Origin: an uncultured Actinomycetota bacterium
GTDB taxonomy: Bacteria > Actinomycetota > Actinomycetes > CAWDCV01
Assembly (NCBI GenBank): GCA_963728125.1
Contig: CAVSIZ010000017.1
Span: forward strand, 15,923-79,922
DNA length: 64,000 nucleotides
Reading direction: 5' to 3'
Part shown: in pieces, positions 5,478 through 59,348 of the stretch
Position numbering within the stretch: the stretch's first letter is position 1
Layout of the letters: each line of letters begins with the position of its first letter
Notes under the pieces: model-generated
What the model saw: only the letters and a program-made list of their open reading frames with translations
Database searches by the model: none
Told to the model about the DNA's origin: nothing
Translations under genes and position numbers: made by a program

Positions 5478-6610
5478 ATGCGCGTCGCCCTCGTCCACAA
5501 CTTTCACACGCGGGGCATCCCGAGCGGTGAGGACGTCGTGGTCCTGGCCGAGGCGGCAGCACTGCAGCGCGCCGGCGTCGACGTTCAGATCGTCGGGACC
5601 AGTAACGATGAGATGGCAAAGCAGCCGGCCGCGCCCCTGCGAGCAGCCTGGGCAGTCACCACCGGGATCGGCGTCTCACCTGAGTCTGACCTGCAGCGCT
5701 TCGACCCGGACGTGGTCCACATTCACGGGACGTTTCCGTACCTCGACCGACGCTGGCTGCGTCGGCTGAACGTGCCCATCGTGGTCACGTCGCACAACTA
5801 CCGGCCGATGTGCGCGAACGGCTACCTGTTCCGCGACGGCCACGTCTGCACGCGCTGCCTTGACGGGCAGCCCTGGTCGGGCGTGCGCTACGGCTGCTAC
5901 CGCGGCTCGCGGGTGGCTTCCGTGCCCCTCGCGGTTGGCTCGATGAGGGGAGCAGCCCGCGATCCGGTTTTGCGTGCCGCCGACCGGGTGCTGGCCCTGT
6001 CCGATCGAGCGAAGTCGGTGCTGGTGCGCGCTGGCGTCCCCGAGAATCGACTCGTGCTCGACCACCACTTCCTGCCCGACGACCTCGACGCGGGCGTCAG
6101 CCCCGCGCGCGATGACTCGTGGATCTTCGTCGGGAGGCTGAGCCCGGAAAAGGGCATCGACCGAGCTCATCGCGCAGTGGCCGGACGACGAGCCGCTCCG
6201 AGTGGTCGGCGACGGCGAACTCCGCGCACAACTCGAGCGGGATGCGGCAGCGAAACCGATCCGGTTCCTGGGAAACTTGCCTCGACACGACGTCATCGAC
6301 GCAGGTAAAGGGGTCGTTCGGGGTGATCTTCCCGAGCCGGTGGTACGAGACGTTCGGCCTCGTCTACATCGAGGGGCTGGCCTGTGGCGTGCCGACGGTC
6401 GCGTTCGACCCCAACGTCGTCGCCGATGCCGTCGCACGTGAGGGAACCGGACAGCTTGCTCACTGGGATGCCGTGGGTGATGCCCTGACAGCTGCTCGCG
6501 GTCGCTTCAATGATCTGCGCGCTCACTGCCGGCGCGTCTTCGAGGAGCGCTACACCGAGAAGGCGTTCGTCGAGCGACGACTCGCCCTGTATGCCGGGCT
6601 GATCGAATGA
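5478..6610 (+). pseudogene. GT4 family glycosyltransferase, interrupted by two frameshifts
   Basis: N-terminal part (MRVALVHNF...HNYRPMCANGY...SWIFVGRLSPEKGID) is in frame 0. The middle part (LIAQWPDDEPLRVVGDGELRAQLE...IRFLGNLPRHDV) is in frame +1 from about 6163. The C-terminal EX7E region (GSFGVIFPSRWYETFGLVYIEGLACGVPTV) is in frame +2 from about 6305. Confidence 0.7.
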
Positions 6611-7968
6611 CCATTCAGCTGAGTCCCCGATCGCCCGCAGCCCCGCCCGCCCGACCGGCGCGCGACTCGCGGCGGCTGCCGCTGCTCGCCTTGCTCGTCT
6701 TCCTTGCCGTCCTGCCGCTGGAGTGGATCACCTTCGCCGGCGTGCAGGAGGGATTCGTCAAGCCGTTCCACGTCGCGGCCCTCGTCTTGATCGTCGTGGC
6801 GCTGGCCCGCTGGCGGCCGCGGCGGCTGATCGGGCCCATCCTGAGCCGCTACTCAGTGGTGTACGTCGGGTACACCCTCGCCCTCGCGGCGACGTTCTTC
6901 GGCGGCCTCACCTACGCCGACCCCTACCTGTCGCGCGCTGAGACCTTCCGCAACGGCTTCTACCTGGTCACGTCGGTGGTGATCGCGGGCGTCGTCGTCG
7001 CGTTGATGGCCCGCCCGCCGCGGTCCGGGCTGGCCTGGGCCGGCGTGCTCACCCTGGGCACCCTGCTGTTCGCGCTGGTCACGGCCCTGGCAGCGCAGCG
7101 ACTCAACCCCTTCGCCATCATCGGCGACGCGTTGGTCCAGCAGGATCCTGACATCATCTCCCGCCAATTGCTGCGGACCGCGTTCCGCACCGATGCCGGG
7201 CTCGACGACGCTGCTCCGAACCTGCGCCACAAGGTGTTCGGCGGCCTTCTCGTTGCGGTATTCCTCGGGCTGGCCTGCCGGTCGCTGGTCGACCGACGCC
7301 GCACCGTGCTGCGCACCGTGCTGGCGATTGGTGGTGCAGTGGGCTGCCTGGTGGTCGTGCTCTCGCTCAGCCGCTCGATCACCGTATGCGTCGTCATCAC
7401 GCTAGCCCTGTTTCCGCTGCGCAGCCTGGTGATGAATCGCGTCCGGCCACTGCGGGCTGCCGTGGCCGCGATGATCGTCCTGGTGATTGGCGTGCTAGCC
7501 GTGTCGCCGGTGGGGCAGCTGGTCTTCGCCCGTTTCGGCGAGACAGGGTCGTACGAAGCGCGGCTGCAGGCGGCGGGGCCATCGTTCCTCGAAGAAGCCC
7601 TTCCTGCTGCAGTTGTCGGGACGACCAATACGGCGGTGGAGACGGCCCCGCACAACCAGATCCTGAACGCCTGGCTGGCGGGCGGTGTGATCGCCGCGAT
7701 TGCCGTCGGCCTCATGCTCTTCTTCCTGCTCCGGCTGTGGGTGCAGCTGGCGTTGCGTTACCTCACCGGCCGCCCGGGCTGGGTGCTCCCGGTGAGTCAG
7801 GCCTGGGTGCTCGGCGTCGGAATCATCCCGCTCGTGCGGTCAGTAACGTCCGGCAGCCTGTTTCACATGGTCGAGTGGACGGCCATCGGGATCTTCCTCG
7901 GCGTGCTCCTCGCCAACGAGCGGGCAGCGAGATCGCTCAATGCCGGGCCGGATGGAGGGAGTCGATGA
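6607..7968 (+). CDS. O-antigen ligase / Wzy-like polymerase family integral membrane protein
   Basis: About 10-12 predicted TM helices. Wzy_C-type motifs LSRSITVCVV and ETAPHNQILNAWLAGGVIA (HNxxL). Start overlaps the stop of the upstream GT4. Confidence 0.65.
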   Translation: MTIQLSPRSPAAPPARPARDSRRLPLLALLVFLAVLPLEWITFAGVQEGFVKPFHVAALVLIVVALARWRPRRLIGPILSRYSVVYVGYTLALAATFFGGLTYADPYLSRAETFRNGFYLVTSVVIAGVVVALMARPPRSGLAWAGVLTLGTLLFALVTALAAQRLNPFAIIGDALVQQDPDIISRQLLRTAFRTDAGLDDAAPNLRHKVFGGLLVAVFLGLACRSLVDRRRTVLRTVLAIGGAVGCLVVVLSLSRSITVCVVITLALFPLRSLVMNRVRPLRAAVAAMIVLVIGVLAVSPVGQLVFARFGETGSYEARLQAAGPSFLEEALPAAVVGTTNTAVETAPHNQILNAWLAGGVIAAIAVGLMLFFLLRLWVQLALRYLTGRPGWVLPVSQAWVLGVGIIPLVRSVTSGSLFHMVEWTAIGIFLGVLLANERAARSLNAGPDGGSR

Positions 7969-8534
7969 CGGAGTTGTCGTCGGCTTCGCCTGCAATCGGG
8001 GATCCGCGGAGCACGCCGTTCGAGGTCACGAGCGTGTCGCTGATGTCGTGGCGCGCGATCGCTGACCCTCCCGTGCTGTCGCTCGGCGATCACGAGATAC
8101 GCATCGACACAGGTGTCATGTCTGCCACCTTGGCCTACCGGCCCTGGCCCGGCCTGCCGCCGGCGCTGCCAACCGGCACGTGGAAGGGCGTCCTGCAGAG
8201 CCTCGACGCCGTGCCGGATCACAGGGAAGCCGGTGCCGGGCTGCTGCGCTTCGGCTTCCTCGGCGCACCGCTGCACACGGCGCTGCATCAGGTCGTGGAT
8301 ACGAGTGCGCTGGACATGTCGTACTGCTCGATTCACCGGCATCCCGACGAGGGCGAGTTCAACCTCATGCTGCCGGCCGAGAACGCGACGTTGGACTACG
8401 AGGTGTACGAGACCACCTGGACCACTGTCCGCGCGCCGACGCAGCTGTGGTTCTCGCGCGGTGTCGCCCACGGCGCGAGGGCGGTATCGGGAATCGGATT
8501 CTTCTTTGTCCTCCGATTGCCCGAGGATCCTTAG
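7965..8534 (+). CDS. hypothetical soluble protein
   Basis: 189 aa ORF starting MTELSSASPAIG, with ATGA overlap to the upstream stop. Composition is balanced rather than Arg/Ala/Pro-biased. No motif recognised. Confidence 0.4.
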   Translation: MTELSSASPAIGDPRSTPFEVTSVSLMSWRAIADPPVLSLGDHEIRIDTGVMSATLAYRPWPGLPPALPTGTWKGVLQSLDAVPDHREAGAGLLRFGFLGAPLHTALHQVVDTSALDMSYCSIHRHPDEGEFNLMLPAENATLDYEVYETTWTTVRAPTQLWFSRGVAHGARAVSGIGFFFVLRLPEDP

Positions 8535-10339: not shown

Positions 10340-10347
10340 GCCGCGTC

Positions 10348-13669: not shown

Positions 13670-13677
13670 GGTTCCCC

Positions 13678-14619
13678 CTATGACATCCCCGCTGACGCTG
13701 ACATCCCCGCTGACGCGTTCAGCCGACTGCTGCCGACAACACTGTCGGTGCGCACGAGGGTATCGAGCCATGACGCCAAGGTGTCCACCGCAAGGCCCTG
13801 CGTCGACACCTCGTGCATTCCACCGAGCCGCGCGTCCACGACGCTTACGGTGAGCAGGTCGCCAGCCGAGTCGGCGATCTTGCCCATCGCACCGGCGCGG
13901 ACGCGCGCGAACTCCGGGTAGAAGTCGTCCGCGCTGCCGTACAGAAAGAGCACCGGGACGCCCCTGCGCAGCGCGGATTGCAGCGCCTCGAGGAACCCCG
14001 GGCTGGCCCCGCCCGGCGACCGCGGCGGACGCGAACCGGTCAGGATGCGGGTCAGCTTGCGCAGCAGGGCCCGGCGCACCTTTCCAGTGGCTTTCCAGGC
14101 GATCGCCACATTCTGCCGGCGCAGCGTTGCCGCCTTCTTGACGTACCACGACAGCGGCCGGCTGAGGATGGCTTCCTGATGGGTCACGTCGCTCACCGGG
14201 GGCGCGATCAGGGCGAGGCCGACGAGCCCATCGACCTGATCCGCAATGGCCATGCCGTTGCGCGCCCCCCAGCACTGGCCGATCATCGCGATCTGGCGAT
14301 GCCCCTGCGACTCCAGCCAGCGGATCGCGCCGAGCGCGTCGTCGGTCCACGGCTTGTCGAACTCGACCTCGCGCATGCTGCCGCTGCTCTCGGCCACGCC
14401 CTGATAGTTGACACGAAGGACCGAGAACCCGCGATCGGCAAGCTCCAGCGCCAACCGCCGGCGCATCTGGTTCTTGCCGAACGTCGGGTCGGTGCCACCG
14501 CCGGCGAGCAGGAGCACGCTCACCCCGTTCGGACGTCCCGACGGCTCGGTGAAGACGCCGAAGAGCTCTTCGGAGCCCGCCGGGAAGAACACCGGGGTGT
14601 TCATCACGGTCCTCCCCAC
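13678..14619 (-). CDS. alpha/beta-hydrolase fold protein with Cys nucleophile (GxCxG), paralog 1
   Basis: Nucleophile elbow MIGQCWGA. Putative acid GSADDF and His GGMHEV. C-terminal SAGMSASAGMS is encoded by an 18-bp tandem duplication. Confidence 0.6.
   Translation of the reverse strand: MGRTVMNTPVFFPAGSEELFGVFTEPSGRPNGVSVLLLAGGGTDPTFGKNQMRRRLALELADRGFSVLRVNYQGVAESSGSMREVEFDKPWTDDALGAIRWLESQGHRQIAMIGQCWGARNGMAIADQVDGLVGLALIAPPVSDVTHQEAILSRPLSWYVKKAATLRRQNVAIAWKATGKVRRALLRKLTRILTGSRPPRSPGGASPGFLEALQSALRRGVPVLFLYGSADDFYPEFARVRAGAMGKIADSAGDLLTVSVVDARLGGMHEVSTQGLAVDTLASWLDTLVRTDSVVGSSRLNASAGMSASAGMS
13681..13716. repeat. perfect 18-bp tandem duplication (TGACATCCCCGCTGACGC x2) at the 3' end of alpha/beta-hydrolase paralog 1
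   Basis: Read directly in the sequence. It encodes the C-terminal SAGMS-A-SAGMS and lies 11 nt upstream of the ACP start. Confidence 0.8.
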
Positions 14620-15521
14620 ATCAGGTGGGCTGTGTCAAGCGAATGTCCGGGACCGTACCCCAGATCTCTGGATACCAAGAAAGCGAAAAGGGCATGTCGC
14701 TCGCCAGCATCCGGGGAAATTCTGCCGAACTCGTGTGCGTCGCGTTCGGCGGATACGGCTGGGATTGTGCCAGCGCACGCTATTGCGCGGGCATACTGAA
14801 CGGCGCCGCTCGTCAACGAGACAGATACGTCGCGGCGGACATTCGGCTCGCAAGCGAATTGTTGGGCGGTCGACGAAATGTTCCGATACGCCACCTCGAC
14901 GCGAAGCCTCCCGCGCTCGACGTTGATGGTGGTGAGCGTGACGTCCCAGGTGCCGTCGTTCTTGATGGGGCGATCGACGACGTAGGTCCCTGGAGCGATG
15001 CGATCAGCCACGGTGCTCGCTGGCGAGGGGCTCGTCAACGACGCGCTGGTGGCTGGGCTGGCAGCTACCGAGGCGTCTCGCTCGGAGTCGTCTTGCGACG
15101 TGACGAGGAAGAACCCCGCGAGCAGGAAGCTCGCCACGACGAGGGCAACGACAAAGACCCGGCGACGCCGATGTTTGCGGCGCTGCGTGTTCCGTTCCGC
15201 TGCCTGCTCGTGCAATGCCTGACGTAGCTTCGCTTCACGTTCACCGGCGAGCCTGAGCTGCGCCTCGCGCGCGCGGGCCTGGTCTTCGCGAGCCTGATCC
15301 GGCTCCTTGGTGAGAACCCGGTAGGCCTCGTTCACCTGACGCAGGTGGCGCTCCGCCTCCTCGATGACCTTGGTGGGGGCGGATTGGTGCCGATCCGGAT
15401 GCAGCAGGTTGGCAAGGACGCGGTAGCGGTCACGGATCTCGGCCTGCGACGCCCCAGGCGCCACCCCGAGCACGGCGTAGGGATCGAAGCGTGGCTGGGG
15501 CATGGTGGGGATGCGTGCCAC
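14604..15521 (-). CDS. J-domain (DnaJ-like) single-pass membrane protein
   Basis: J domain DPYAVLGVAPGASQAEIRDRYRVLANLLHPDRH with an HPD motif. Charged coiled-coil linker. TM helix FVVALVVASFLLAGFFLV. Extracytoplasmic domain of about 160 aa. Confidence 0.65.
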   Translation of the reverse strand: MARIPTMPQPRFDPYAVLGVAPGASQAEIRDRYRVLANLLHPDRHQSAPTKVIEEAERHLRQVNEAYRVLTKEPDQAREDQARAREAQLRLAGEREAKLRQALHEQAAERNTQRRKHRRRRVFVVALVVASFLLAGFFLVTSQDDSERDASVAASPATSASLTSPSPASTVADRIAPGTYVVDRPIKNDGTWDVTLTTINVERGRLRVEVAYRNISSTAQQFACEPNVRRDVSVSLTSGAVQYARAIACAGTIPAVSAERDAHEFGRISPDAGERHALFAFLVSRDLGYGPGHSLDTAHLMWGGP

Positions 15522-15558
15522 TTACGACCGGGAGCTCGTCGGGATCCGGATGCGATCC

Positions 15559-16464
15559 TCAGCCGACTGCTCGCCCTCCCCGGCGGGAATGTCCAACGTG
15601 GCGAATCCACGCCAGCACCGTGCGCAGAAAGGTTTCCTGCACGGCGACCGAGCCGAGCCCGTCGAGGCGACCATCGACGACCTCGACGGCCACCTGCGCG
15701 GACCGCCGATCGATCGCGCGACCGAGCGCATCGTCGCGTGCCCGGTCGAACTGGGACGCGAAGTCGTCATCGAGTCCGTACAGGAACAGCACCGGCGTCC
15801 CCGAGTCGAGGACATGCTCGACCTGCGGGAGGAACCGTCGCGGCGGTGTGCCCGCCCGGCCGCGGCGGCCGAGCAGAACCCGCCGGAGCTTCCCCCTGAG
15901 CACAGCCCGGCGCCGCTTCGCCTTCTCGCCGCGGACGAGGAGCAGCAACGAGCGGGGCGACGTCAGCCGTCGCAAGTACCACGACAGCGGTGAATCGAGG
16001 ACCCCCTCGCGATGCCCTCCGTCGCCCAGCGGGCACGACACCAGGGCCAACCCGGCGAGCGCGCCTACCTGGGGAGCGGCGGCGAGCGCTGCGCGACCGC
16101 CGGCGCACAAGCCGATCACGACGATGCGCTGGAAGCCGCGGGACTCGAGCCAGCGCAGGGCGGCGACGGTGTCGTCGACCCACTCGTTGCCGATATCGGG
16201 GTCGCGGACCAGGCCGCCGCTCTCGCCGACGCCGGTGTAGCTGAAGCGCAGTGCGTGGAAGCCGCGCGCGGCCAGCTCGCGGGACAGCCGTACCCGGGCC
16301 TGGTTCTTCCCGAACGCCGGCACGCCCCCGCCGCCCCACAGGCTCAACACCGCGGCGCCGTTGGCGTTGCCGTTCGGGGCGGTGAGGATGCCGACCAGGT
16401 CCTCGTCAGTCACGTCCGTCGCCGGAATGACGACAGGCGTCTCATTGCTAGACGTGATGGTCAT
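15559..16464 (-). CDS. alpha/beta-hydrolase fold protein, paralog 2 (Cys elbow retained, His not evident)
   Basis: Elbow VIGLCAGG and acid GLDDDF. Clear paralog of 13678-14619. Start ATG at 16462-16464 overlaps the stop of paralog 3 (ATGA). Confidence 0.55.
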   Translation of the reverse strand: MTITSSNETPVVIPATDVTDEDLVGILTAPNGNANGAAVLSLWGGGGVPAFGKNQARVRLSRELAARGFHALRFSYTGVGESGGLVRDPDIGNEWVDDTVAALRWLESRGFQRIVVIGLCAGGRAALAAAPQVGALAGLALVSCPLGDGGHREGVLDSPLSWYLRRLTSPRSLLLLVRGEKAKRRRAVLRGKLRRVLLGRRGRAGTPPRRFLPQVEHVLDSGTPVLFLYGLDDDFASQFDRARDDALGRAIDRRSAQVAVEVVDGRLDGLGSVAVQETFLRTVLAWIRHVGHSRRGGRAVG

Positions 16465-17345: not shown

Positions 17346-17478
17346 AACCCCCCCTGCAGTTGGTGCACCGTAACCGACACACGGGGGCTCTGCCCCCCGT
17401 GTTCCCCCCGACCCCAAAACCTACCCACGGCTGGTTGCCCCACGTAGGGAATCGGGCCTGCGATAGCCTCAATTCGGG
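17346..17478. promoter_or_regulatory. divergent intergenic region between alpha/beta-hydrolase paralog 3 (-) and DAHP synthase (+), containing a 9-bp-stem hairpin at about 17379-17402
   Basis: Perfect inverted repeat ACACGGGGG / CCCCCGTGT with a short loop. GGGGAGGGGAAG RBS-like stretch lies before the DAHPS start. Confidence 0.3.
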
Positions 17479-38472: not shown

Positions 38473-38516
38473 GGGAGGCGCTCCCTGGAAATTCGTATGT
38501 TGCTTCTAATTCTTTG

Positions 38517-38589
38517 CTCCCGGGACAGGATTTGAACCTGTATTAGGTGGGTCAAAGCCACCCGTCCTGCCTGATTAGACGACCCGGGA
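38517..38589 (-). tRNA. tRNA-Gln (anticodon UUG)
   Basis: The reverse complement folds as a cloverleaf. Acceptor stem UCCCGGG / CCCGGGA. Anticodon loop CUUUGAC. T-arm GGTTCAAATCC. Confidence 0.8.
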
Positions 38590-43501: not shown

Positions 43502-43507
43502 AGCAGC

Positions 43508-45269: not shown

Positions 45270-45273
45270 GCCC

Positions 45274-46482: not shown

Positions 46483-47179
46483 TGGCTGTCACCGTCGCGG
46501 CCAGTTCGTCCTCGTCGACGCCTCTGACCTGCGCCATCGCCCGCAGCGTGTACGGAATCATCGCCGGCGAGTTCGGTCGTCCGCGGTACGGCATCGGCGT
46601 AAGGAACGGCGAGTCGGTCTCCACGAGCAGCAGTTCCGGAGGAACCACAGCGAGTGCATCACGCAGCGGCTGCGCGTTCTTGAACGTCACCGTCCCAGCA
46701 AACGACATGATGTAGCCGCGCCGTGCGCATCGCTGCGCAAAGTCGGCATCGCCAGAGAAGCAGTGGAACACCGTCCGGTCGGGTGCACCTTCGTCGTCGA
46801 GAATACGTAATACGTCGTCGTGAGCGTCGCGATCGTGAATGACGAGAGCCTTGCCGTGCGCTTTCGCGATGGCGATGTGAGCGCGGAAGGACGCCGCCTG
46901 CACCATCGGCTCGACTCGTCCCCAGTAGTAGTCGAGTCCGGTCTCGCCAACGGCACGCACCTGCGGCAGGGATGCAAGGCGATCGATTGCCGCCAGTGCA
47001 GCATCATCGGCTGCGTCTGCGTGATTGGGATGTATCGCGACAGTGGCCCAAACATCGCTGTACACAGCGGCAGTGTCAGCGCACCACTGCGACGACTCGA
47101 TCGAGTCGCCGACGGTGATGAGTCGGGTGATGCCGACCGACCGCGCTGCCGCTACAGCATGGGCGACATCGACATCCAT
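46457..47179 (-). CDS. tatD: TatD family metal-dependent hydrolase (DNase)
   Basis: Motifs VGETGLDYYW, HCFSGD and VETDSPFL. Confidence 0.8.
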   Translation of the reverse strand: MDVDVAHAVAAARSVGITRLITVGDSIESSQWCADTAAVYSDVWATVAIHPNHADAADDAALAAIDRLASLPQVRAVGETGLDYYWGRVEPMVQAASFRAHIAIAKAHGKALVIHDRDAHDDVLRILDDEGAPDRTVFHCFSGDADFAQRCARRGYIMSFAGTVTFKNAQPLRDALAVVPPELLLVETDSPFLTPMPYRGRPNSPAMIPYTLRAMAQVRGVDEDELAATVTANAERIFAL

Positions 47180-47256
47180 CGCGTCGAGGTGACAGTGGCT
47201 GTCGACGCTGTCAACCCGCAGTGGCTCGGGAAGCGGCGGCGGGTCACCCTGACGAG

Positions 47257-49077: not shown

Positions 49078-49185
49078 GTCTTAAATCCTAGGTAAAGCCT
49101 GCATAGGACACGCTCGCCCGGGTTTGACGCTGCTCATGTCCGGTTGGTTACCCTCCCGACCCATGTTCCACGGGATCACTAGGTA

Positions 49186-50028
49186 GTGGGACGACATGCA
49201 CGGGGGCCTGTCGTCGTCGAATCGCCCGTTCGGGCAGCAACAGCTCGTGATCGAAGGAGAACACACGCTCGTCGTAAGCAACGTCGCGGGGCTACGCCCG
49301 TTGCGGCTGTCATAGTCGCTGCCGGCGCCGGACTCGGCGTCGTCGGACAGCCCGTCCTCAGTGCCGCGAAGACCGCAACCGACCCCGAGACCACCGCATC
49401 TGCCACACCTTCGCGCACCTCTACTCCCACTCCGTCGGCGACGCCGACGCCACCCCCCGTGGAGGCCGCGCCGGCAACGCCGGCCGTACCGCCGCCACCG
49501 GTGGAGATGACGCCGAGTCCAGAGGAGCTCGCTGCCATCGCCGCTCGGGAAGCCGAAGCGGAACGCGCTGCGCGGGAAGCCGAGCGAGCAGCCCTTCTTC
49601 CCGGCTGCGAGGCGTCACCCGACGCCACCGAGGATTACGCCAACGGTCGCATCCCGGAGAGCGCGCTGTGCGCGCTGCCGAGTGGTGACCTGCTTCGTGC
49701 GGATGCAGCGTTCGCGTTCGCCTCGATGAACGCGGCGTTCAACGAGGCGTTCGGCGAGGACATCTGCGTCGGCAATACGTACCGCAGCTACTCCGAGCAG
49801 GTTTCTCTCCACAGCCAGAAGCCGAGCATGACCGCGGAGCCGGGCACGAGCAACCATGGCTGGGGCACCGCGGTTGATCTGTGCGGTGACGGCGCCAGCT
49901 TCGGCACGAGCGTCTACAAGTGGCTCATCGCGAACGGCCCCGACTACGGCTGGGACAACCCCGATTGGGCGCGCGCCGGCGGCAGTCGTCCCGAGCCGTG
50001 GCACTGGGAGTTCGAAGGCGCCAGCTAG
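49186..50028 (+). CDS. membrane-anchored M15 family peptidase (D-alanyl-D-alanine carboxypeptidase, VanY-like)
   Basis: Basic N-terminus and a TM segment. Pro/Thr-rich linker. Catalytic motifs SYSEQ, SNHGWGTAVD and EPWHWEF. Confidence 0.7.
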   Translation: MGRHARGPVVVESPVRAATARDRRRTHARRKQRRGATPVAAVIVAAGAGLGVVGQPVLSAAKTATDPETTASATPSRTSTPTPSATPTPPPVEAAPATPAVPPPPVEMTPSPEELAAIAAREAEAERAAREAERAALLPGCEASPDATEDYANGRIPESALCALPSGDLLRADAAFAFASMNAAFNEAFGEDICVGNTYRSYSEQVSLHSQKPSMTAEPGTSNHGWGTAVDLCGDGASFGTSVYKWLIANGPDYGWDNPDWARAGGSRPEPWHWEFEGAS

Positions 50029-50119
50029 TCACGTCGCCTCGCGCACCCTCCCAAGTTGTCCGAACGTCCTCGCGTCCGCACGCGGTCGGCGGTCGGACAA
50101 GTCGCGGGGAGGCCGCCGC

Positions 50120-50962
50120 TCACGAGCGCTTGGCGGCGAGCACGGCGTCATAGACGCGACGCTTGGGGACACCGGCACCGAGGGCAACCGCGGCGATCGC
50201 CGCCTTGCGTGGTTCACCGGCTCGTTCCCGATCCGCGACGTGTCGGGCGAGTTCGTCCTCGGTCACGACCACCTGCGAGACAGGTGCGCCCTCGACGACG
50301 ACGGTGATCTCTCCGCGCACCCCGTCGCGGGCCCACTCAGCGAGCTCCGCGAGCGTTCCCCGCCGTACCTCCTCGTGGGTTTTGGTCAGCTCTCGGCACA
50401 CGGCAACCCGCCGCTCACCCCCGAACGCCTCGGCGAGGGCCGTCAGCGACGCCGAAAGCCGGTGGGGCGCCTCGAACAGCACGATCGTCCGCTCGTCGCC
50501 TGACAGCGCGCTCAACCGCGCCGCCCGCTCCCCGGCCTTGCGAGGCAGGAAGCCCTCGAAGCAGAACCTGTCGACCGGCAGGCCTGAGACGGCAAGTGCG
50601 GTGAGCACGGCCGACGGGCCGGGTACGGCCGTGACCCGGATCCCGTCGGCGACGGCCGCCGCTACGAGTCGGTACCCGGGATCGGACACCGTTGGCATGC
50701 CCGCATCGGTGACCACGACGACGCGCTGCCCAGAGCGCAGGGCGTCGAGCAGCGACTCGGTACGCGCGGCCTCGTTGGCGTCGTAGTACGAGACGACCCG
50801 CCCGCGAAGCGTCACGTCCAAGGCCTGGAGCAGCCAGCGCAGGCGCCGGGTGTCTTCCGCCGCCACCACATCCGCGGCCTCCAGCTCCTCGCGAAGGCGT
50901 GGGGACGCGTCCGACACATCTCCGATCGGCGTGGCCGCAAGCACGAGAACGCCGGCATCCAT
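50120..50962 (-). CDS. rsmI: 16S rRNA (cytidine1402-2'-O)-methyltransferase
   Basis: Tetrapyrrole-methylase fold: LVLAATPIGDVSDASPR and AEDTRRLRWLLQ. Start ambiguous between 50962 and 50998; the ORF track extends to 51190. Confidence 0.8.
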   Translation of the reverse strand: MDAGVLVLAATPIGDVSDASPRLREELEAADVVAAEDTRRLRWLLQALDVTLRGRVVSYYDANEAARTESLLDALRSGQRVVVVTDAGMPTVSDPGYRLVAAAVADGIRVTAVPGPSAVLTALAVSGLPVDRFCFEGFLPRKAGERAARLSALSGDERTIVLFEAPHRLSASLTALAEAFGGERRVAVCRELTKTHEEVRRGTLAELAEWARDGVRGEITVVVEGAPVSQVVVTEDELARHVADRERAGEPRKAAIAAVALGAGVPKRRVYDAVLAAKRS

Positions 50963-51004
50963 GTCGCCATCTTCGCGGCTCAGGACGGCACCTAGCATGG
51001 CCGG

Positions 51005-52585
51005 GTGGCGACGGCCGAGCTCGCGCGCACGGACGACGACGCGTCCGGCGAGATGTCGGCGTCGCCGCCAGCGGAGATCGATCCACGACAGCGACTGCGT
51101 GATCGGCTGGTTCCCCCCATGCCGGCGACCGCCTGGGGCTGGACCGGACCGATCCTGGTCACCGCCATCGCCGGTGTGCTGCGCTTCCACCGGCTCGGGA
51201 TTCCCCGTGCGTTCGTCTTCGACGAGACCTATTACGCCAAGGACGCCTGGTCACTGCTGCAGTACGGACACGAGCGGAACTGGCGGCCGGCCGACGAGGC
51301 GGACGCACTCGTCGTCGATGGCGTGCTCCAGGACGTGTGGGGCGAGGGACCGGCGTACGTCGTACATCCACCATTCGGCAAGTGGATGATCGCGGCGGGC
51401 GAGTGGGTGTTCGGTTTGACGCCGTTCGGCTGGCGTTTCATCGTCGCGCTGCTTGGCACGCTGTCGGTGCTGATGGTGGCCCGCATTGCCCGTCGCATGT
51501 TCCGCTCGACGCTGCTCGGGTGCATCGCCGGTCTGCTCCTCGCTCTCGAGGGGCTGCACTACGTCGTCTCGCGCACCGCTCTGCTCGACGGCGTCCTCAT
51601 GTTCTGGGTACTCGCCGCGTTCGGCTGTCTCATCGTCGACCGTGACCGGGCCCGCTCACTGCTCGCGGCCGGACGGATGAACCTCGGCTTGCGGCCGTGG
51701 CGAATTGCCGCCGGCCTGTGCCTTGGCGCGGCATGCGCAACGAAGTGGAGCGGTCTCTACTACGTCGCCGCATTCGGGCTGCTCACGGTGCTGTGGGACG
51801 TTGGCGCGCGACGCTCGGCGGGAGCGCAGCATCCGTGGAACGCCATGCTGCGACGGGATGCGATACCCGCCTTTGTCTCGATCGTCGTCGTCACCGTCGT
51901 GACGTACCTCGTCTCGTGGATCGGCTGGTTCGCCACCGGCGACGGCTGGGATCGGCAGTGGGCAGCCGGCAGGGAGTCCGCTTGGGCGTTCGTGCCCGGC
52001 CCGCTGCGCAGCCTCTGGCACTACCACGCCACGATGCTCGATTTCCACACCGGTCTCGACTCCGAGCATCCGTACGACTCGGATGCCTGGGGCTGGCTGC
52101 TCATGATGCGGCCGGTGTCGTTCTTCTACTCGACGATCGATCGAGGCGAGCTCGGTTGCACAGCGGATCAGTGCTCTCGCGAGGTCCTCGGACTCGGTTC
52201 GCCGCCGCTGTGGTGGGCCGGCGCAGCGTCGCTTCTCGTGCTCGTGTGGCTATGGATCGGGCGCCGCGACTGGCGCGCCGGAGCCATTTTGTGTGCGGTC
52301 GCGGCGGGCTACCTGCCCTGGTTCCTGTACGACGAGCGCACGATTTTCTCCTTCTACGCCGTCGTTTTCTCGCCGTTCATCGTGCTAGCGGTCACGATGG
52401 TCCTGGGTGTCGTCCTCGGCCCTGTCGGTGCATCCGCCACCCGTCGTAGGAATGGCGCTGTCATCGCCGGCGCGTACGTGCTCGTCGTCGTCGCTTCCTT
52501 TGCGTACTTCTATCCGGTGTACGCCGCACGCGTAATGCCCTACGCCGACTGGATCCAGCACATGTGGCTGCGCAGCTGGATCTGA
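51005..52585 (+). CDS. pmt: dolichyl/polyprenyl-phosphate-mannose--protein mannosyltransferase (GT39)
   Basis: Motif FVFDETYYAKDAWSLL. Multiple TM helices. Confidence 0.85.
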   Translation: MATAELARTDDDASGEMSASPPAEIDPRQRLRDRLVPPMPATAWGWTGPILVTAIAGVLRFHRLGIPRAFVFDETYYAKDAWSLLQYGHERNWRPADEADALVVDGVLQDVWGEGPAYVVHPPFGKWMIAAGEWVFGLTPFGWRFIVALLGTLSVLMVARIARRMFRSTLLGCIAGLLLALEGLHYVVSRTALLDGVLMFWVLAAFGCLIVDRDRARSLLAAGRMNLGLRPWRIAAGLCLGAACATKWSGLYYVAAFGLLTVLWDVGARRSAGAQHPWNAMLRRDAIPAFVSIVVVTVVTYLVSWIGWFATGDGWDRQWAAGRESAWAFVPGPLRSLWHYHATMLDFHTGLDSEHPYDSDAWGWLLMMRPVSFFYSTIDRGELGCTADQCSREVLGLGSPPLWWAGAASLLVLVWLWIGRRDWRAGAILCAVAAGYLPWFLYDERTIFSFYAVVFSPFIVLAVTMVLGVVLGPVGASATRRRNGAVIAGAYVLVVVASFAYFYPVYAARVMPYADWIQHMWLRSWI

Positions 52586-52594
52586 CACAGACGT

Positions 52595-53806
52595 CTAGCC
52601 GGGTGAACCGTCCTGGAAGACAGCCAGCGTTCCGCCGTACGTCGCGACCCAGATCTGCCGCGTCTCTGCGTCGTGCGTGATGCCGATCGGGTGGTAGCCC
52701 ACGCCTTCGGTCTGCAGCACCGCCATGTCGCTCGTGCGCACTTTCGCCACGGTGCTCGAGTTGTAGTTGACGACGTAGAGCGACTCACCATCGTCGGCGA
52801 TGGCCATGCTGCGCGGGGCAGACCCGGTGCTGACGCGGCTGACGACTGTGGCAGTCGGAATGTCGACCTTGGCCACCTGCCCGTCGCGGTTCAGCGTCAC
52901 GTAGAGCTGCGTGCCGTCGGGCGAGATGTTGAGGTGGCGCGGCCCGCCACCGACGCCCTCGATTGCGCCGACCTCGAACGTCGTGAGGTCAACCGTCGCA
53001 ACAGACGTGCCACCCATGACGGCGACGTACGCGACGCGCGAGTCGGGTGACACAGCTAGACCACGTGGATAAGCACCGATCGGTATGCGCTGAATCTCAG
53101 CGCCACCTGCAGCATCAATGATGCTGAGGTCGTACGTGCACCAGTTCGTGACCAGAATGCGCTTGTTGTCCGGCGTGACCGCTACGAACTTCGGCACCGC
53201 ACCGACGCGGATCACCTGGTCGATTTGCAGCGTGGATGTGTTGATGCGGTAGACGAAGCTGTCGGGATAGTTCGATGCCGGCGAGCAGCTGTCCGCTCCC
53301 TCGCGGAAACCCGGACCGTACATCGAGTAGTTCGAGACGTACGCGTAGCGGCCATCGGAGGTGAATGCTGCCTCGACAGGTGCACCTTGGAACTCGCCCT
53401 GGAACTCTGCGTGACCGAAGTTCGACAGCACCACCGTGTCGGGAATGGTGGCGACGAGCTGGAACGAGCGGTCGTACACCGTCACCGTGTGCCGGTACAT
53501 CATGTTCTGCGCGAAGAAGAGTCCCTTGCCGGATGCGACGACCGACTTCGGCGAGATGTCGCCGCCAATCTCCGCGACCTGCACCATCCGCCCCTCCGAC
53601 GACGGCGGGCGAGGTGGCGGGCTCGGGGTGACCTGCGGCGGCTCAGGCGTGGGGGTGATGGGCGCGGTGCTCGGGGGCGCCGGTGCGGCGGTGTCCGCTG
53701 GCGTCGGCGGAGCTTCTGCTCCACTGGCACACGCGGTCAGCAGCGCCGCGGCAGCGACACCACTCGCGAGCAACTGACAACGACGAGCCGTGCTCTGCGA
53801 CGCCAC
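52595..53806 (-). CDS. lipoprotein with YVTN-type beta-propeller repeats
   Basis: Signal peptide plus lipobox LLTAC. Pro-rich linker. Repeated YV.N / SPDG motifs. Confidence 0.6.
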   Translation of the reverse strand: MASQSTARRCQLLASGVAAAALLTACASGAEAPPTPADTAAPAPPSTAPITPTPEPPQVTPSPPPRPPSSEGRMVQVAEIGGDISPKSVVASGKGLFFAQNMMYRHTVTVYDRSFQLVATIPDTVVLSNFGHAEFQGEFQGAPVEAAFTSDGRYAYVSNYSMYGPGFREGADSCSPASNYPDSFVYRINTSTLQIDQVIRVGAVPKFVAVTPDNKRILVTNWCTYDLSIIDAAGGAEIQRIPIGAYPRGLAVSPDSRVAYVAVMGGTSVATVDLTTFEVGAIEGVGGGPRHLNISPDGTQLYVTLNRDGQVAKVDIPTATVVSRVSTGSAPRSMAIADDGESLYVVNYNSSTVAKVRTSDMAVLQTEGVGYHPIGITHDAETRQIWVATYGGTLAVFQDGSPG

Positions 53807-53886
53807 CTGACCCCCTTCAGTCGCTCACACGGTAGCCGCTGCACGCCGATCGACAATTCATACGAACGATCGTGCTATTGTGCGCT

Positions 53887-54475
53887 CATGAGCAGGGGCG
53901 CCATGACCCGAGACGCCATCCTGCACCATGGCGTCGAGGTGGCTTACCGCGTCGGGCTCGGCGGGCTGTCCATCGGCAGCCTGGCCGCCGGCACCGGTAT
54001 GTCGAAGAGCGGATTGTTCGCCCATTTCGGCTCCAAGGAGTCGCTGCAGCTCGAGGTGCTCGACCGCGCTCGCACCGAATTCACCGACGCCGTCATCCGT
54101 CCCGCACTCGCTGCGCCGCGCGGGGAGCCGCGCGTCCGCGCCCTGTTCGAGCACTGGATGATCAGTGGCCGGGTGCGCATGCCGGGGGGATGCCTTTTCG
54201 TCAAGGCAGCAACGGAATTCGACGAGCAGGCCGGACCGGTACGCGACCAGCTGGTTCGCGGTCACCGCGACCTCCAGGACGCAATCGCGCAGATGTTCCG
54301 TACGGGCATCAGTGAAGGACACTTCCGGGCGGACGCTGATCCCGAACAATTCGCGAGCGACCTCAACGGCGTGATGCTCGCGTTCTACCAGGCCAACCGG
54401 CTGCTCTCGGACCCGACGGCTGAGACCCGCGCCCGGACGGCTGTCGACGCGCTGCTGCGCGCAGCGCGCGCCTGA
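53887..54475 (+). CDS. TetR family transcriptional regulator
   Basis: HTH region LSIGSLAAGTGMSKSGLFAHFGSKESL. Embedded in a longer spurious ORF that begins at 53225. Confidence 0.75.
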
Positions 54476-54493
54476 CCTACCCAAGGAGCCGAG

Positions 54494-55393
54494 ATGGCAA
54501 CATCGACACACTCGTTAAATAGCACGATCGTTCGTTCTCACTTCTCCGCGCCGCGGTCGGTGCGCACGGCGTTCTCTGTCCTGGAACACATCGCGCCGTC
54601 GCTCGGAGCTCGATGGGCTACGCGGCTGTGGTGCACCGTTCCGACGGCACTCCGAAATGGACAGCGCTCGCGCATCGACGGTCCCGCCGGTACGGGATCG
54701 CTCGGTGCGGTCGACTTGCCCGGTGAAGGGTCGGTCGTAACGGAGAGCTGGGGAGTCGGTCCTGCGGTTTACCTCGTCCATGGTTGGGGTGGGTGGCGCG
54801 GCCAGCTCGGCTCATTCGTCGACCCGCTCGTCTCGCGTGGCTATCGCGCGATCGCGTTCGACATGCCCAGCCATGGCGACTCTGCCCCCGGCGCATTGGG
54901 ACCGCGGCAATCCCACCTGGCCGAGTTCGCCGACACCCTGACTGCGGTCATCGCCCACTACGGACCGCCAGCGGGAGTCGTCGGGCATTCGCTGGGCTGC
55001 GCCGCAACGGCGGTTGCGGTTCGCGACGGTGTGTCGGTGCCTCGGCTCGCGTTCGTTTCCCCGACCGTGCAGCCGATCTCCATGACGTCCGCCATGGCGG
55101 AGGGGTTCGGTTTCGGAACGCGGACCCACACGCGGATGATCCGCCGGCTCGAATCGCTCGTCGGTCGGCCGATGTCGGACTTCGATCTGCTGGCCATGGC
55201 GGACGAGGTGCCGATGCCACGAACGCTTGTCGTCCACGACCGCGGTGACCGTGACGTCCCCTACGAAGACGCCGATCTGCTGGTTGCGACGTGGCCGCAG
55301 GCCGACCTCGTCTCCACGTCAGGTCTCGGACATCGCCGCATCCTTCGCGACTCCGACGTCGTGGAACTGGTCGCCGGCTTCGTCGCCCCCTGA
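54494..55393 (+). CDS. alpha/beta hydrolase
   Basis: Oxyanion region LVHGWGG. Ser nucleophile elbow GHSLG. Confidence 0.75.
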   Translation: MATSTHSLNSTIVRSHFSAPRSVRTAFSVLEHIAPSLGARWATRLWCTVPTALRNGQRSRIDGPAGTGSLGAVDLPGEGSVVTESWGVGPAVYLVHGWGGWRGQLGSFVDPLVSRGYRAIAFDMPSHGDSAPGALGPRQSHLAEFADTLTAVIAHYGPPAGVVGHSLGCAATAVAVRDGVSVPRLAFVSPTVQPISMTSAMAEGFGFGTRTHTRMIRRLESLVGRPMSDFDLLAMADEVPMPRTLVVHDRGDRDVPYEDADLLVATWPQADLVSTSGLGHRRILRDSDVVELVAGFVAP

Positions 55394-55643
55394 TCAGGCG
55401 GCCGGCCACGCTCGGCGCTTCCCGCCGAGGACCCCGCACCTCACCCCCCATCAGCTGGTTCCCCGGGCACACCCGCACCGGCGTGTCGCGTGCCGGCGGA
55501 ACCAGTCGACGTCCCCGGGGCTGGCGCCTCCCCGGAAGTAGAACGCGGGACGCTGGATCGTCGCGCGCTGCTAGCGCCGGTACGGGCCTATCCGGGCGCT
55601 ATGCCGGCGGCGCGTGTCACCGGACTCCTCGAGCGAAACCGGA

Positions 55644-56090
55644 TCAGCGAGTGACAAGGACCGGGCAGGGTGCGTGATGCAGCACCCGGTAAGCGACGCT
55701 GCCCAGCAGGATCGCCTCTACCGCGCCCTTGCCGCTACCGCCGATCACGATGAGGTCGACATCGAGCTCATTGGCGGCGCGAACGATCTCCTGGGCTGGC
55801 GTGCCAGCCCGGACGAACGACTGCACCTTCGCCGAGGTCTCGTTGAACACCTCCGAGATCCGATCCACGGCCTCCTGAGCCGCTGCCCGGAAGGAGACCT
55901 CGGTCGGCTCTAGATCGCGAGCTGCTTGATCCTCCTCACCGAAGTCGCTGGCGAAGGGGACGGCGGCAAGCGGCCGGATCACTGCCACCACGCTGACCTG
56001 CTCGAGCCCGGAGCCGAGCAGGGAGGCCACGTAGCGCGCTGCTTTGAGCGACTGCCCGGAGCCGTCGGTGGCGACAAGGACGTGGGTCAT
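55644..56090 (-). CDS. universal stress protein (UspA family)
   Basis: N-terminus HVLVATDGSGQS. C-terminal GGSGKGAVEAILLGSVAYRVLHHAPCPVLV. Embedded in a longer ORF in the six-frame track. Confidence 0.75.
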   Translation of the reverse strand: MTHVLVATDGSGQSLKAARYVASLLGSGLEQVSVVAVIRPLAAVPFASDFGEEDQAARDLEPTEVSFRAAAQEAVDRISEVFNETSAKVQSFVRAGTPAQEIVRAANELDVDLIVIGGSGKGAVEAILLGSVAYRVLHHAPCPVLVTR

Positions 56091-56116
56091 GACTGCCTCC
56101 TGAATAGCGGTCGCCG

Positions 56117-57542
56117 TCAGCGTCCGAGGGTTTCCGACGGGTCCAGCCTGCGCTGGGAGATGTTGTTCACGATGTAGAGCACCAGCCCGATCGCGAGGAG
56201 CAGGCCACACACGACCGTGGTGCTCTGCAGCGGCTCCAGGTCGCCCCGGGCCAGATCCTGGATGTCGGTGACGAGCACGTAGGCCAGCAGCGCCAGGTTC
56301 ACCACGATCCCGATCCCTAGCACCGCCGTGGGCGCTCGGTAGTGCTCGTGATCGACCGGCGTCGCGGCGCAGGACCAGGCCACTGAGGCACACCATGGCG
56401 AACACCGCCAAGAGGAACGCCACCGTGGCGTTCGCGAATGTGTTGACGCCGCCCTCCCCGACGATGACGATCAGCGCCAAGACGACGAGCGTGGTGCCGA
56501 CGATTGCCACCCACGGCGTCCGGCGCGACTGGTGGGTGCGCGAGAAGATCCGCGGGACGACATGTTCGCGACCCATGCCGTACATGATTCGCGACATCGT
56601 GATCGACTGGACCAGGCACGTGTTGGCGATCGCGATGCAGGCGATGATCGCGAACAGCCACGACGGGAAAGCCGGCAACCCAGTGCGCACCACCTCGAGC
56701 AGCGCCACATCGGAGTCGGCGAGGCGGTCGGTCGGAGTCACGATGGAGGCAAGGAAGGAGATCACCAGGTAGATCACACCCGCGGTCACCATGCCGCCCA
56801 GCAGCGAGCGCGGGAAGACCCGGGACGGGTTCTGCACCTCCTCGGCGACGTTCGCCGAGTTCTCGAACCCCGACATGGCGAAGAACGCGAGGACGGCGCC
56901 GGTCAGCGCGAGCAGCGCCGGGTTTCCGTCGTCGTTGAACTCGAAGGGCCGACTGAAGTCGGGGTCCCCTCCTCCGAGGATCACGTACAGGCAGATGACC
57001 AGGACGATCACCAGGCCGGTCACTTCGGTGAGCGTCATGGCGATGTTGGCCTTGACCGACTCGTTGATGCCTCTGAAGTTGATGTACGCCAGCAGGATCG
57101 AGAAGACGAGGGCGGTGATGAGCACGGGGATGGCGACTACCGGCTCCAGCAGCTCGACGAAGTAACCACTGAACGCCAGTGCTAGCGCCCCCCCGGCTGA
57201 CAGGCTGGCAGCGACCATGGCGAAGGTCACGAGGAACGTGATGGTGCGGTTGTGGAAAGCGCGGTGCGCGAAGGTCGACGCGCCGCCGGCCCGGGGGTAC
57301 TTCGTAATCAACTCCGCGTACGCCAACCCAGTGAGCATCGCCGCCGCGACGCCGATCGCGAACGAGGTCCAGAAAGCCCCGCCCACCTGCAGGGCCATCA
57401 CCCCGACCAGCGCATAGATGCCCGAACCCAGGACGTCACCGAGGACATAGAAGTACAGGCCCCTGCCGGTGATGGCGCGATTGAGCTCTTCGGACTGGTG
57501 CGCGGTCTTTTCTGCGATCGACTCGCGGTGGGTGTCAGCCAT
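56117..57542 (-). CDS. APC-family amino-acid permease, apparent frameshift near 56350
   Basis: Twelve TM-helix pattern starting MADTHRESIAEK. The last helices and the C-terminus (...AVLGIGIVVNLALLAYVL...LLLAIGLVLYIVNNISQRRLD) are in a different frame, represented by ORF 56117-56383. Confidence 0.6.
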
Positions 57543-57759
57543 GTCGCCTCGATCCTTCGCCGTGAACCCCGGTAGGTGGGCAACCTCGTGACGGTCCAGC
57601 CTGCTGCCGATGCTTCCTCGGGGCAAGTCCCGGGGTCGGTCTGAGCGACAGGCACGAGCGGACGACGCCGCGAACTGCATGGCGCCGGCGGCACGGCCGC
57701 GTCATTGCACGTCGGCGGCCCATCCGGTTACGCCGACGACGCGGAGTACCAGCACCTTG

Positions 57760-58065
57760 AAGATGCCGCCCCTGCTGCTGGCAAAGGATTCGGACGAGGC
57801 GTTCGTGGACCGGGCGGAGGACACCTACGAGAGCGCTCTCGATGAGGCGATGGCCGACCTGCCGTCGGGGATCGAGGCGACTGCGCAGATCCTGCCCGGG
57901 TCACCCGTCGATGTCCTCGCGGAACTCGACGATGACGACGTCGATCTGCTGGTGTGTGGCTCGCGCGGCTACGGACCGGTGCGCCACGTCCTCCTCGGCG
58001 GCGTGTCGTCGCGGCTGGTCAGGCGGGCGGCGAGCCCGGTGCTGGTCGTACCGCGCAGCGACTGA
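57760..58065 (+). CDS. universal-stress-protein-like C-terminal half domain (possibly truncated or frameshifted)
   Basis: Only the C-terminal USP consensus is present: DVDLLVCGSRGYGPVRHVLLGGVSSRLVRRAASPVLVV. Confidence 0.35.
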   Translation, partial: KMPPLLLAKDSDEAFVDRAEDTYESALDEAMADLPSGIEATAQILPGSPVDVLAELDDDDVDLLVCGSRGYGPVRHVLLGGVSSRLVRRAASPVLVVPRSD

Positions 58066-58204
58066 GCAAGTGGCTCAACTGGCCTGATCGCGCAGGTGGG
58101 CGACGAAGTCCGCCAGGCTGGCGCCGAGACCCGCGGACGCCTCCGCGGACAGCAGTCCGGCAGGCAGCAGCCGCAGCGTGCCGCCCACCGGCGGAAGTGC
58201 GGTG

Positions 58205-59348
58205 CTAACGCTGTAGGACAGTCGCTCGATCCCGTTCATGTCGCTTCTCCCCCGTGTCCGTGGCCTGCGATGGATCCGAAGGTAAGCGTGATCCCAAGAT
58301 CCCCGAGGGCGAAGTGGCGAAGGCGGCCACATCCCGACTGATCGGCGTTAGCTGGCTCATCCGAACGGCTGAGGTGGCATGGCGGCGATGCGCGGGGTAA
58401 GAACAGCGGTGTGGAGCTGGGCGACGACGGCACGCGTGGTGCTTTCCCAACCTGGCAACCTCGATCGGCCGCTGCCGGTCGTACATCGTCGCTCGGCCGC
58501 CCGCCATCTGCGCCTCCTCAGCACCGGTCCCCTGCGCCACGATCGACGGGATACCGCGCGCCAGCGCTTCGACCACGACCATCCCGTATGCCTCCGCGCG
58601 GGACGTCAGGACGAGTAAGTCGGCGGCATCCCACTCGGCCTCGAGCGCGTTCCCCGTCCGCGGGCCGACCACGAGACGCAATCGGCGAGGCCCAGCCGTG
58701 TTGCCTCAACCGGACGCTGTCGGCGTATGCGGCCTCGATCTCGACGGCGCCGACGATGCGCGCCGTCCAGGGCTGATCGGCAACGTCGGCCAGGGCGCGG
58801 ACGAGGCTCAGCTGATCCTTGCGCGCGCACACTGTCCCCAGGGCGAGGCCGCGCGGCGGCTCACCCGGTCTCGTGCCGGCAGCAATCGGCGCCGGATCAC
58901 TGCCGGGGCGCGCGACCGACGCGTCACTACGCCGTGCAGGGCGCCACCCGATCCGCCGACCAGCGGCTCGTGCAGATCACGCCGCTCGCGGCACGCAGGA
59001 TCGTGCGCTCAGCTTCCTCGTACGCCCGCAGCTCGGCCGTCGAGCTCCAGACGTCATCGGACATGAAGGAGTGCACAAGGACGACAACCGGACGACCGGC
59101 GCCGACCGCGGCTGTCACTACCTCGGGCGCGCCGCATGCCACGATCGCGTCGATCGCCACTGCGGCTCGCGCGTCAGCAGGTCAGCCAACTCGTCGCGCT
59201 CGACCGCGGAGACGCGCGGCCAGGTCCCGTCCACGCGGTGTTCGTGCAGGTCGACGCCGCGTGCGAGCAGCTCGGCGATCAGCCGCCGGTCGTACACGTT
59301 CCCGCCGGTCGGGGCGTCGCTCATCCAGGTGGCGAAGCCCCATCTCAT
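58205..59348 (-). pseudogene. GT4 glycosyltransferase (MshA/PimB-like N-terminus), fragmented into four reading frames
   Basis: Successive pieces in different frames. N-terminal GGNVYDRRLIAELLARGVDLHEH in ORF 59118-59348. VVVLVHSFM in ORF 58927-59160. KDQLSLVRALADV in ORF 58518-58832. C-terminal TSRAEAYGMVVVEALARGIPSIVA in ORF 58205-58681. Confidence 0.6.

Follow-up and report, generated by a model that had tools for sequence, protein, structure and literature searches.

Split genes in a 64-kb stretch of an uncultured soil actinobacterium: a glycosyltransferase relic and probable single-base consensus errors

Disrupted genes in the window

The sequence analysed here is a 64,000-nt contig stretch (the window) of an uncultured Actinomycetota bacterium, a soil actinobacterium, with a G+C content of 67%. 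Several of its genes are split across reading frames. Frames were assigned by three-frame translation and Pfam, followed by frameshift-aware protein-to-DNA alignment guided by intact homologs, using an aligner written for this analysis. The original prediction that four genes are split was confirmed in this way. These genes encode two GT4 glycosyltransferases, an aryl-CoA ligase of the benzoate-CoA-ligase family and an APC-family amino-acid permease (Table 1). The two shifts proposed for the first GT4 gene at about 6163 and 6305 were placed at 6160 and 6299, the ligase shift expected near 20296 at 20304, and the permease shift expected near 56350 at 56357. The second GT4 gene, to which three shifts had been ascribed, is indeed frameshifted but in a worse state: it changes frame four times or more and has lost 95 nt. 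The list of four was correct as far as it went but had missed two further genes, encoding a DnaJ-domain protein (shift at 14770) and a hydrolase (shift at 15603). The neighboring genes metG, ppc, pabAB and glmU, described as intact, are full length and align end-to-end with their Pfam models.

The identities of the broken genes were supported by domain hits of the reassembled proteins above the curated Pfam cut-offs: Glyco_trans_4_4 and Glycos_transf_1 for GT4, AMP-binding and AMP-binding_C for the ligase, and AA_permease_2 for the permease. The source names of full-length intact homologs agree with assignment as GT4, benzoate-CoA ligase and APC permease. Exact-protein look-ups with the window open reading frame (ORF) at 18304-19941, protein P0129 and the universal stress protein (Usp) encoded next to the permease gave no match.

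For comparison, 21 loci were collected from 11 related assemblies with identities of 94-99%. They were reached via the ligase and first GT4 proteins and a conserved 54-aa ORF, and they span window positions 1-31442 and 47862-64000. The set comprised seven ENA assemblies with Flye-style names ('contig_N'; 96-99.3% identity), three Joint Genome Institute (JGI) assemblies (94-97.7%), which were assumed to be short-read, and one low-coverage SPAdes contig (L037, 0.83x coverage), which was riddled with deletions and was excluded as a reference. All proteins predicted from the closest sister contig were aligned to the window. Measured against these proteins and the JGI permease copies, only five genes are disrupted outside the second GT4 gene, all by isolated +1 insertions.

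Table 1. Disrupted genes, extra bases and associated features of the window. The inserted base is given in square brackets.
Feature	Position	Strand	Description
GT4 gene 1	5478-6610	+	376 aa after removal of two extra bases; ORF as deposited ends after 276 aa
Extra A	6160	+	CATCG[A]CCGAG; common to window and ENA contig_21446; not in three other sisters
Extra A	6299	+	CATCG[A]CGCAG; window only; not in L038, L039, L041, L042
DnaJ-domain gene	14621-15503	-	One extra base at 14770/14771
Alpha/beta-hydrolase gene	15522-16464	-	One extra base at 15603
Aryl-CoA ligase gene (benzoate-CoA-ligase family)	19941-21501	+	519 aa if repaired; +1 at 20304
Usp gene	55644-56090	-	144/148 aa versus JGI copy; downstream of permease gene
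APC-family amino-acid permease gene	56117-57542	-	474 aa if repaired; one extra base at 56357
Conserved 54-aa ORF	58075-58239	-	No Pfam match; beside GT4 gene 2; anchor for fetching sister loci
GT4 gene 2, decayed relic	58357-59347	-	Intact homologs 347-348 aa
Segment carrying GT4 gene 2	58404-59443		Missing or differently deleted in every relative; right breakpoint 58403/58404 in all

In the first GT4 gene Pfam located Glyco_trans_4_4 and Glycos_transf_1 in different frames, and the alignment put the +1 shifts at 6159/6160 and 6298/6299. The repaired protein agrees with an intact sister protein at 370 of 376 residues, and a protein search returned an intact 376-aa relative that is 97% identical. 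Its 90% cluster has at least 14 intact members of 376 or 382 aa from JGI, Logan, NCBI and ENA (at least 14 of the 15 listed) besides a member of 276 aa whose sequence is that of the window ORF. At the first site the string GACCGAG is an exact merge of two protein alleles of the population, GIDQLI and GIAELI; the codons GAC CAG of the former are deduced from protein and the codons GCC GAG of the latter were read in L038 and L039. The window and contig_21446 have a common local haplotype around 6160. Both insertions are an A within the same heptamer, CATCG^C, and the insertion in the permease gene comes after ATCGAC. This context may indicate a preference of an error process, or it may be coincidental since ATC-GAC is a common codon pair.

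The ligase gene carries an extra T (TCG TCG [T] GTC) that divides the AMP-binding domain between two frames. After repair the protein is identical to an intact sister at 517 of 519 positions, and an intact 519-aa protein with 99% identity was found by protein search. In its 90% cluster, 9 of 11 members are intact 519-aa proteins and the two truncated 382-aa members are those of the window and of contig_21446, which has the same insertion. The site is flanked by alleles GTC GTT and GTT GTC, which an alignment can present as a pair of indels. Between the ligase stop codon and the gene for a class-IV aminotransferase (window 21513-21525; L024 11560-11650), the sisters at 99% identity have ca. 63-75 nt more, including a 19-nt inverted repeat without mismatches (CCATGATCGTGTGATGCCA…TGGCATCACACGATCATGG). 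This additional stretch, perhaps a terminator or a short palindromic element, is missing in the window, and the lineage at 96% identity has another spacer.

The permease gene has one extra base on its coding strand (GAC GCC [G] GTC), which is private to the window. The repaired protein agrees with intact JGI copies at 470 of 474 residues with a single +1, and it is colinear across the shift junction with homologs of ca. 70% identity. A scan of species-representative genomes yielded only such non-syntenic homologs of ca. 70% identity, from Rubrobacteraceae metagenome-assembled genomes (MAGs), and these served to locate the indel. Upstream of the shift 10 of 12 substitutions fall in third codon positions (2/0/10 for positions one to three). 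The shifted frame remains open into the Usp gene, which creates a spurious 678-aa 'permease-Usp' ORF (55644-57680). The cassette of permease and Usp genes (55525-57760) is missing in all ENA sisters at 99% identity and is present only in two JGI assemblies at 97.7%. At the same site the 99% sisters encode another permease (493 aa) and a tandem Usp (304 aa) on the opposite strand, and the cassette has probably been replaced by horizontal transfer or recombination.

The two genes missing from the original list lie close together. The DnaJ-domain protein agrees with its sister at 280 of 293 residues with a single +1 that is missing in five of five relatives, and the old frame still codes for the conserved C-terminus. 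The hydrolase agrees at 309 of 313 residues; its single +1 lies 27 codons ahead of the stop codon, is missing in all relatives, and is followed by a conserved old frame. Both shifts are contained in a block (14200-16150) whose identity is 97.2% with the 99% sisters and 96.5% with the 96% lineage, against 99.6-99.9% between its flanks and the 99% sisters. The block has 22 private substitutions, mostly in third codon positions. A chimeric two-strain consensus was considered as its source and dropped, as these substitutions fit a real third lineage; from its sequence the block looks like an allele imported from such a lineage.

The second GT4 gene and the junction at 58403

The second GT4 gene is damaged in a different manner. 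Its lesions comprise -1 shifts at 59156, 58709 and 58674 and a change at about 58927-58941, and the C-terminal part could be fitted only after a larger deletion. Comparison with two sisters of ca. 99% identity (L028 and L035), whose retained 3' third reads in one frame, showed that the window has lost 95 nt at 58470-58475. Identity to the closest intact homologs reaches just 61% and 59%, and a search of 5.8 billion proteins that included the sister assemblies (8000 candidates scored) found no intact copy above 61% identity. Substitutions are spread evenly over the codon positions (7/4/5 and 5/2/3), whereas the counts are 1/0/6 for the 54-aa ORF next to it and 2/0/10 for the permease gene.

All 11 relatives carry deletion alleles of this gene, of which at least six are different. 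The segment 59443-58404 is entirely missing in two 99% sisters (L033 and L034), and 59373-58641 is missing in L028 and L035. One JGI locus (L027) is devoid of 58941-58404 and has 1-nt and 2-nt deletions of its own. Two others (L031 and L036) share its junction at 58403 and have lost additional internal sequence close to the 5' end; blastn aligned only 59371-59148 of these, and direct reading of the sequence showed that more of the gene is retained. In L029, L030 and L032 the whole segment is gone.

The deletion alleles all meet the same right-hand nucleotide, 58403. Across strains at least three different left-hand sequences are joined to it (…|TTCTTACCCCGCGC): the continuous 3' end of the GT4 gene, the junction 'GGCGTCGGA|' and the junction 'ATCACAAC|'. 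The position 58403/58404 may mark the boundary of a cassette or a hot spot of recombination. Beside it, the 54-aa ORF differs almost only at synonymous or third positions across relatives of 94-99% identity, and the very same protein appears in 60 indexed blocks of a public collection. The ORF is a genuine small gene.

The multiple frame changes, the 95-nt deletion, the differing deletion alleles, the even codon-position pattern and the lack of a close intact copy together indicate that the second GT4 gene is a true pseudogene, dead and drifting. Consensus error does not account for it because deletions of 95 to 1040 nt cannot be such errors. The gene lies in a spot where strains differ by deletions and cassette replacements, and has been drifting neutrally and shedding DNA, through small deletions and the 95-nt loss here and through other large deletions in each relative.

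Bacterial pseudogenes decay with a deletional bias, for example in Mycobacterium leprae. The second GT4 gene resembles this in its small and larger deletions, lost codon-position pattern and strain-specific remnants; it differs in being one gene in a hypervariable spot and not part of a genome-wide process. The common right-hand end at 58403 is not predicted by simple random decay.

Single-base insertions across assemblies and their origin

Single-base indels were counted in the long-read sisters and in the JGI assemblies (Table 2). Each of the long-read sisters holds 3 to 29 private indels, adding up to 54 insertions versus 23 deletions, and insertions outnumber deletions in four of these six assemblies. 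The JGI contigs have 0 to 1 in 28 kb despite a divergence of 3-6%. Rates vary about 15-fold among assemblies and are unrelated to divergence. About half of the insertions in the long-read assemblies do not duplicate an adjacent base. The lesions of the window outside the second GT4 gene are all +1 insertions, and five of seven are likewise not duplicates of a neighbor.

Table 2. Private single-base indels per assembly. An indel counts as private if it is confined to a single assembly; only sites with coverage in three or more assemblies were considered.
Assembly	Private insertions	Private deletions	Compared length (kb)
Window	3 (+2 common with contig_21446)	0	47.5
contig_21446	8	2	44.1
contig_52519	1	2	44.2
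contig_107594	2	1	27.6
contig_116796	25	4	33.5
contig_30047	11	3	12.7
contig_98231	7	11	43.4
Three JGI assemblies together	0	1	28

Sequence context did not agree with the proposal that the indels are concentrated in G/C-rich runs. The longest homopolymer at any insertion site is 2 nt, though the window has 83 runs of at least 5 nt, and none of the six coding frameshift sites lies within any of these runs. The insertions are instead associated with polymorphism: 33 of 58 private insertions fall within 3 nt of a single-nucleotide polymorphism (SNP) among the other assemblies, versus 19.2 ± 3.8 expected. The six coding insertions in the window outside the second GT4 gene all fall in stretches that are locally divergent. 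Five of them could be compared with the closest sister and lie in SNP-dense blocks; the sixth is in the permease cassette, which is missing in the 99% sisters.

The five genes broken by insertions have 95.6-99.6% amino acid identity to intact copies (98-99% for the first GT4, ligase and permease genes), and downstream of each shift the old frame still codes for conserved protein. No relaxed constraint was found in the first GT4, ligase, permease, DnaJ-domain and hydrolase genes: third-position changes dominate and downstream frames are conserved. The comparison with sister genomes suggested in the original prediction revealed near-identical intact copies in many assemblies, and its outcome is mixed. 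The insertions at 6160 and 20304 are common with one of five to six sisters, which counts towards real alleles, and those at 6299, 14770, 15603 and 56357 are private to the window. Pattern scans of metagenome contigs for the sites at 6160 and 20304 gave no match in a collection that does not include the relevant JGI samples; the 20304 pattern worked on the fetched loci.

The private indels of the sister assemblies break different genes in each, including pabAB and genes for priming transferases. In pabAB three private insertions occur in contig_21446 (L023 13487-14038, corresponding to window 23779-24328) and one in contig_52519 (L024 14331-14519). About a dozen genes are broken in contig_30047 (L030, whole locus), including PMT, methylase and VanY-type genes. 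An ABC transporter gene was a further candidate for a broken gene of the window (stop at 8533, shift at 8412). It was rejected as a defect of contig_52519, since the window agrees with three other relatives and has a normal gene of the 602-aa type.

These data lead us to a divided reading, in which the second GT4 gene is a genuine relic and the other lesions are probable consensus errors; as a joint explanation we consider this fairly likely. The original prediction had left one choice, pseudogenes or indel errors, for all four genes. A single answer does not hold: the second GT4 gene is a true pseudogene, and the other three are better explained by assembly error. For the single-base insertions as a class an origin as consensus artefacts is quite likely, and for the two shared ones at 6160 and 20304 the balance tips only slightly to the artefact side. 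Pending read data, the frameshifts in the glycan cluster and the permease gene are best treated as unpolished consensus errors.

The artefact reading rests on the occurrence of private indels in every long-read sister and their near absence from the JGI contigs. In the mechanism that we propose, the extra bases would arise during assembly and polishing of a long-read, strain-mixed soil metagenome without short reads. Where SNPs between the reads of co-occurring strains are close together, the polisher may keep a base from both alleles, resulting in a +1. Such merging of alleles is suggested by the SNP-adjacent insertions, the GACCGAG merge at 6160 and the allele pair at the ligase site. Given the insertion bias and the non-duplicated bases natural slippage is not expected, and the spectrum is the opposite of that of the deletion-rich second GT4 gene.

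Both the sequencing platform of the window contig and the mixing of strains are what we infer from these patterns. Flye-style contig names fit a long-read origin, and a large soil project at ENA whose contigs are named in the same style has published a Nanopore-only pipeline of Flye and a single Medaka round (PMC12313526). Membership of the window contig in this project was not established, and the ERZ250395xx assemblies could not be linked to Microflora Danica. Nanopore MAGs below ca. 40x coverage are reported to retain frameshifting, gene-fragmenting indels for which short-read polishing is needed (PMC9262707). The window lesions resemble the residual indels of Nanopore-only Flye and Medaka assemblies (IDEEL-type; Sereika et al. 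2022, PMC9262707) in being assembly-private single-base indels that break conserved genes, with rates that differ widely between assemblies of the same species and JGI contigs of relatives that are almost free of them. They differ in that the window sites are non-homopolymeric and SNP-adjacent, insertions prevail (54 to 23 in the sisters), and two sites recur in a second assembly.

Several points weigh against consensus error. Identical insertions at 6160 and 20304 occur in contig_21446, which comes from another ENA analysis (ERZ25039591), something not expected of random error. The first GT4 gene carries two lesions each in the window and in contig_21446, the one at 6160 being common and one being private to each (6299 in the window, the equivalent of 5698 in contig_21446). 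The permease cassette can be compared only with relatives at 97.7% identity. The published error mode of Nanopore sequencing is homopolymer indels, not insertions at non-repetitive sites.

The strongest alternative takes the insertions at 6160 and 20304 as true null alleles that segregate in nature and that the window strain and contig_21446 both inherited; the first GT4 gene would then have gained a second lesion independently in each, and the other private insertions may be errors. The two assemblies differ by ca. 0.8% and in gene content, contig_21446 having neither the permease cassette nor the second GT4 gene, and yet they have identical insertions and a common local haplotype around 6160. 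One shared and one private lesion per assembly is the pattern of a real shared pseudogene, and both genes belong to an accessory surface-glycan/aryl-acyl cluster. Accessory surface-glycan loci often vary among strains. On the other hand, the frameshifted forms occur only in two long-read assemblies and in none of ca. 15 cluster members from JGI, Logan and NCBI, and at both sites there are allele pairs that an alignment may mistake for indels. A single-base insertion that duplicates no neighbor is an unusual natural mutation, and the proteins have no surplus of amino acid changes (370/376 and 517/519 identical). We regard inherited null alleles as unlikely, though deserving of some weight. It is also rather doubtful, in our estimate, that these alleles circulate by recombination among co-existing strains with 58403 as a site-specific point of cassette exchange. 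If this were true, a cluster for sulfated-glycan/aryl-acyl decoration would be in the course of being turned off strain by strain, and GT, an APH-like kinase gene, an ADH/HTH module and the permease-Usp cassette would be exchanged at 58403.

It is improbable that all lesions are real, with gene decay having turned six genes of the 64 kb, some of them in the glycan cluster, into true pseudogenes. The lesions do stand in the deposited sequence, they fall in blocks imported from diverged lineages, and the second GT4 gene shows that genuine decay happens in this genome. Yet six sister strains would have to decay independently in different genes, housekeeping-like ones included, at rates that span ca. 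15-fold without relation to divergence, and JGI assemblies of more distant relatives show no such decay. The insertion-biased, non-homopolymeric spectrum is the opposite of that of the second GT4 gene, and purifying selection is still seen in every affected gene. The proposal that the cluster is partly decaying is unsupported; the one true relic sits outside the glycan cluster, in a hypervariable spot.

Functional shifts by programmed ribosomal frameshifting, transcriptional slippage or repeat-mediated phase variation are so improbable that they can be dismissed, even if phase variation is classically associated with frameshifted glycosyltransferases of surface-glycan loci and the window has such genes: no homopolymer, short tandem repeat or slippery heptamer occurs at any site, the shifts are missing in nearly all relatives and hence not conserved, and the first GT4 gene would require two separate recoding events. 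Phase-variable glycosyltransferases of Neisseria, Haemophilus and Campylobacter switch by slippage in simple sequence repeats. The likeness to them ends with frameshifted glycosyltransferase genes in a surface-polysaccharide-type cluster, as the window has no repeat tract near its shifts and the inserted bases are mostly not duplicates of their neighbors. Programmed +1 frameshifting of the prfB type also involves one extra base within an otherwise continuous coding sequence, but the window sites have no in-frame stop or rare codon, are not conserved and lie in unrelated genes. Programmed frameshifting and repeat-mediated phase variation were accordingly rejected.

Other features and consequences for annotation

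Some further observations concern parts of the window away from the disrupted genes. In two sister loci an antitoxin gene of the HicB type and a small ORF as its partner are inserted between a gene for a 196-aa protein and the ABC transporter gene (L041, 13426-14626; L042, 9479-10679); they are missing in the window (at 8534) and in contig_52519. An intergenic hairpin at 17378-17400 reads GGGGG CTCTG CCCCCC in the window and has a perfect G6/C6 stem in two sisters. This is the sole homopolymer-length difference that was seen, and it is likely a one-base undercall or else a real variant. The only RNA gene detected is one for tRNA-Gln (38516-38589, minus strand), followed by a 304-aa ORF of lower G+C (38789-39703, minus strand) that may have been left behind by an element integrated at the tRNA gene. 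In tatD (47179-47260, minus strand), in a region outside sister coverage that was read in the window only, the first in-frame ATG, GTG or TTG comes only after the conserved N-terminal motif VDSHCHL, and only CTG codons occur between the preceding stop codon and the motif. To judge from the sequence, tatD would either use an unusual start codon or have lost its start.

The lesions described here represent no new kind of biology. Their separation matters for annotation. Five working genes would otherwise be called pseudogenes, a spurious 678-aa permease-Usp fusion would be recorded, and the glycan cluster would be described as decaying. Relics and consensus errors can be told apart without reads by a combination of lesion spectrum, codon-position pattern and private or shared status across sister assemblies. 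The results also indicate that strain-mixed long-read metagenome assemblies can hold single-base insertions outside homopolymers, and annotations of the public sister assemblies call for the same caution. For the organism itself, the first GT4 glycosyltransferase, the aryl-CoA ligase, the permease, the DnaJ-domain protein and the hydrolase would be functional, and the glycan/aryl-acyl cluster is most likely intact.

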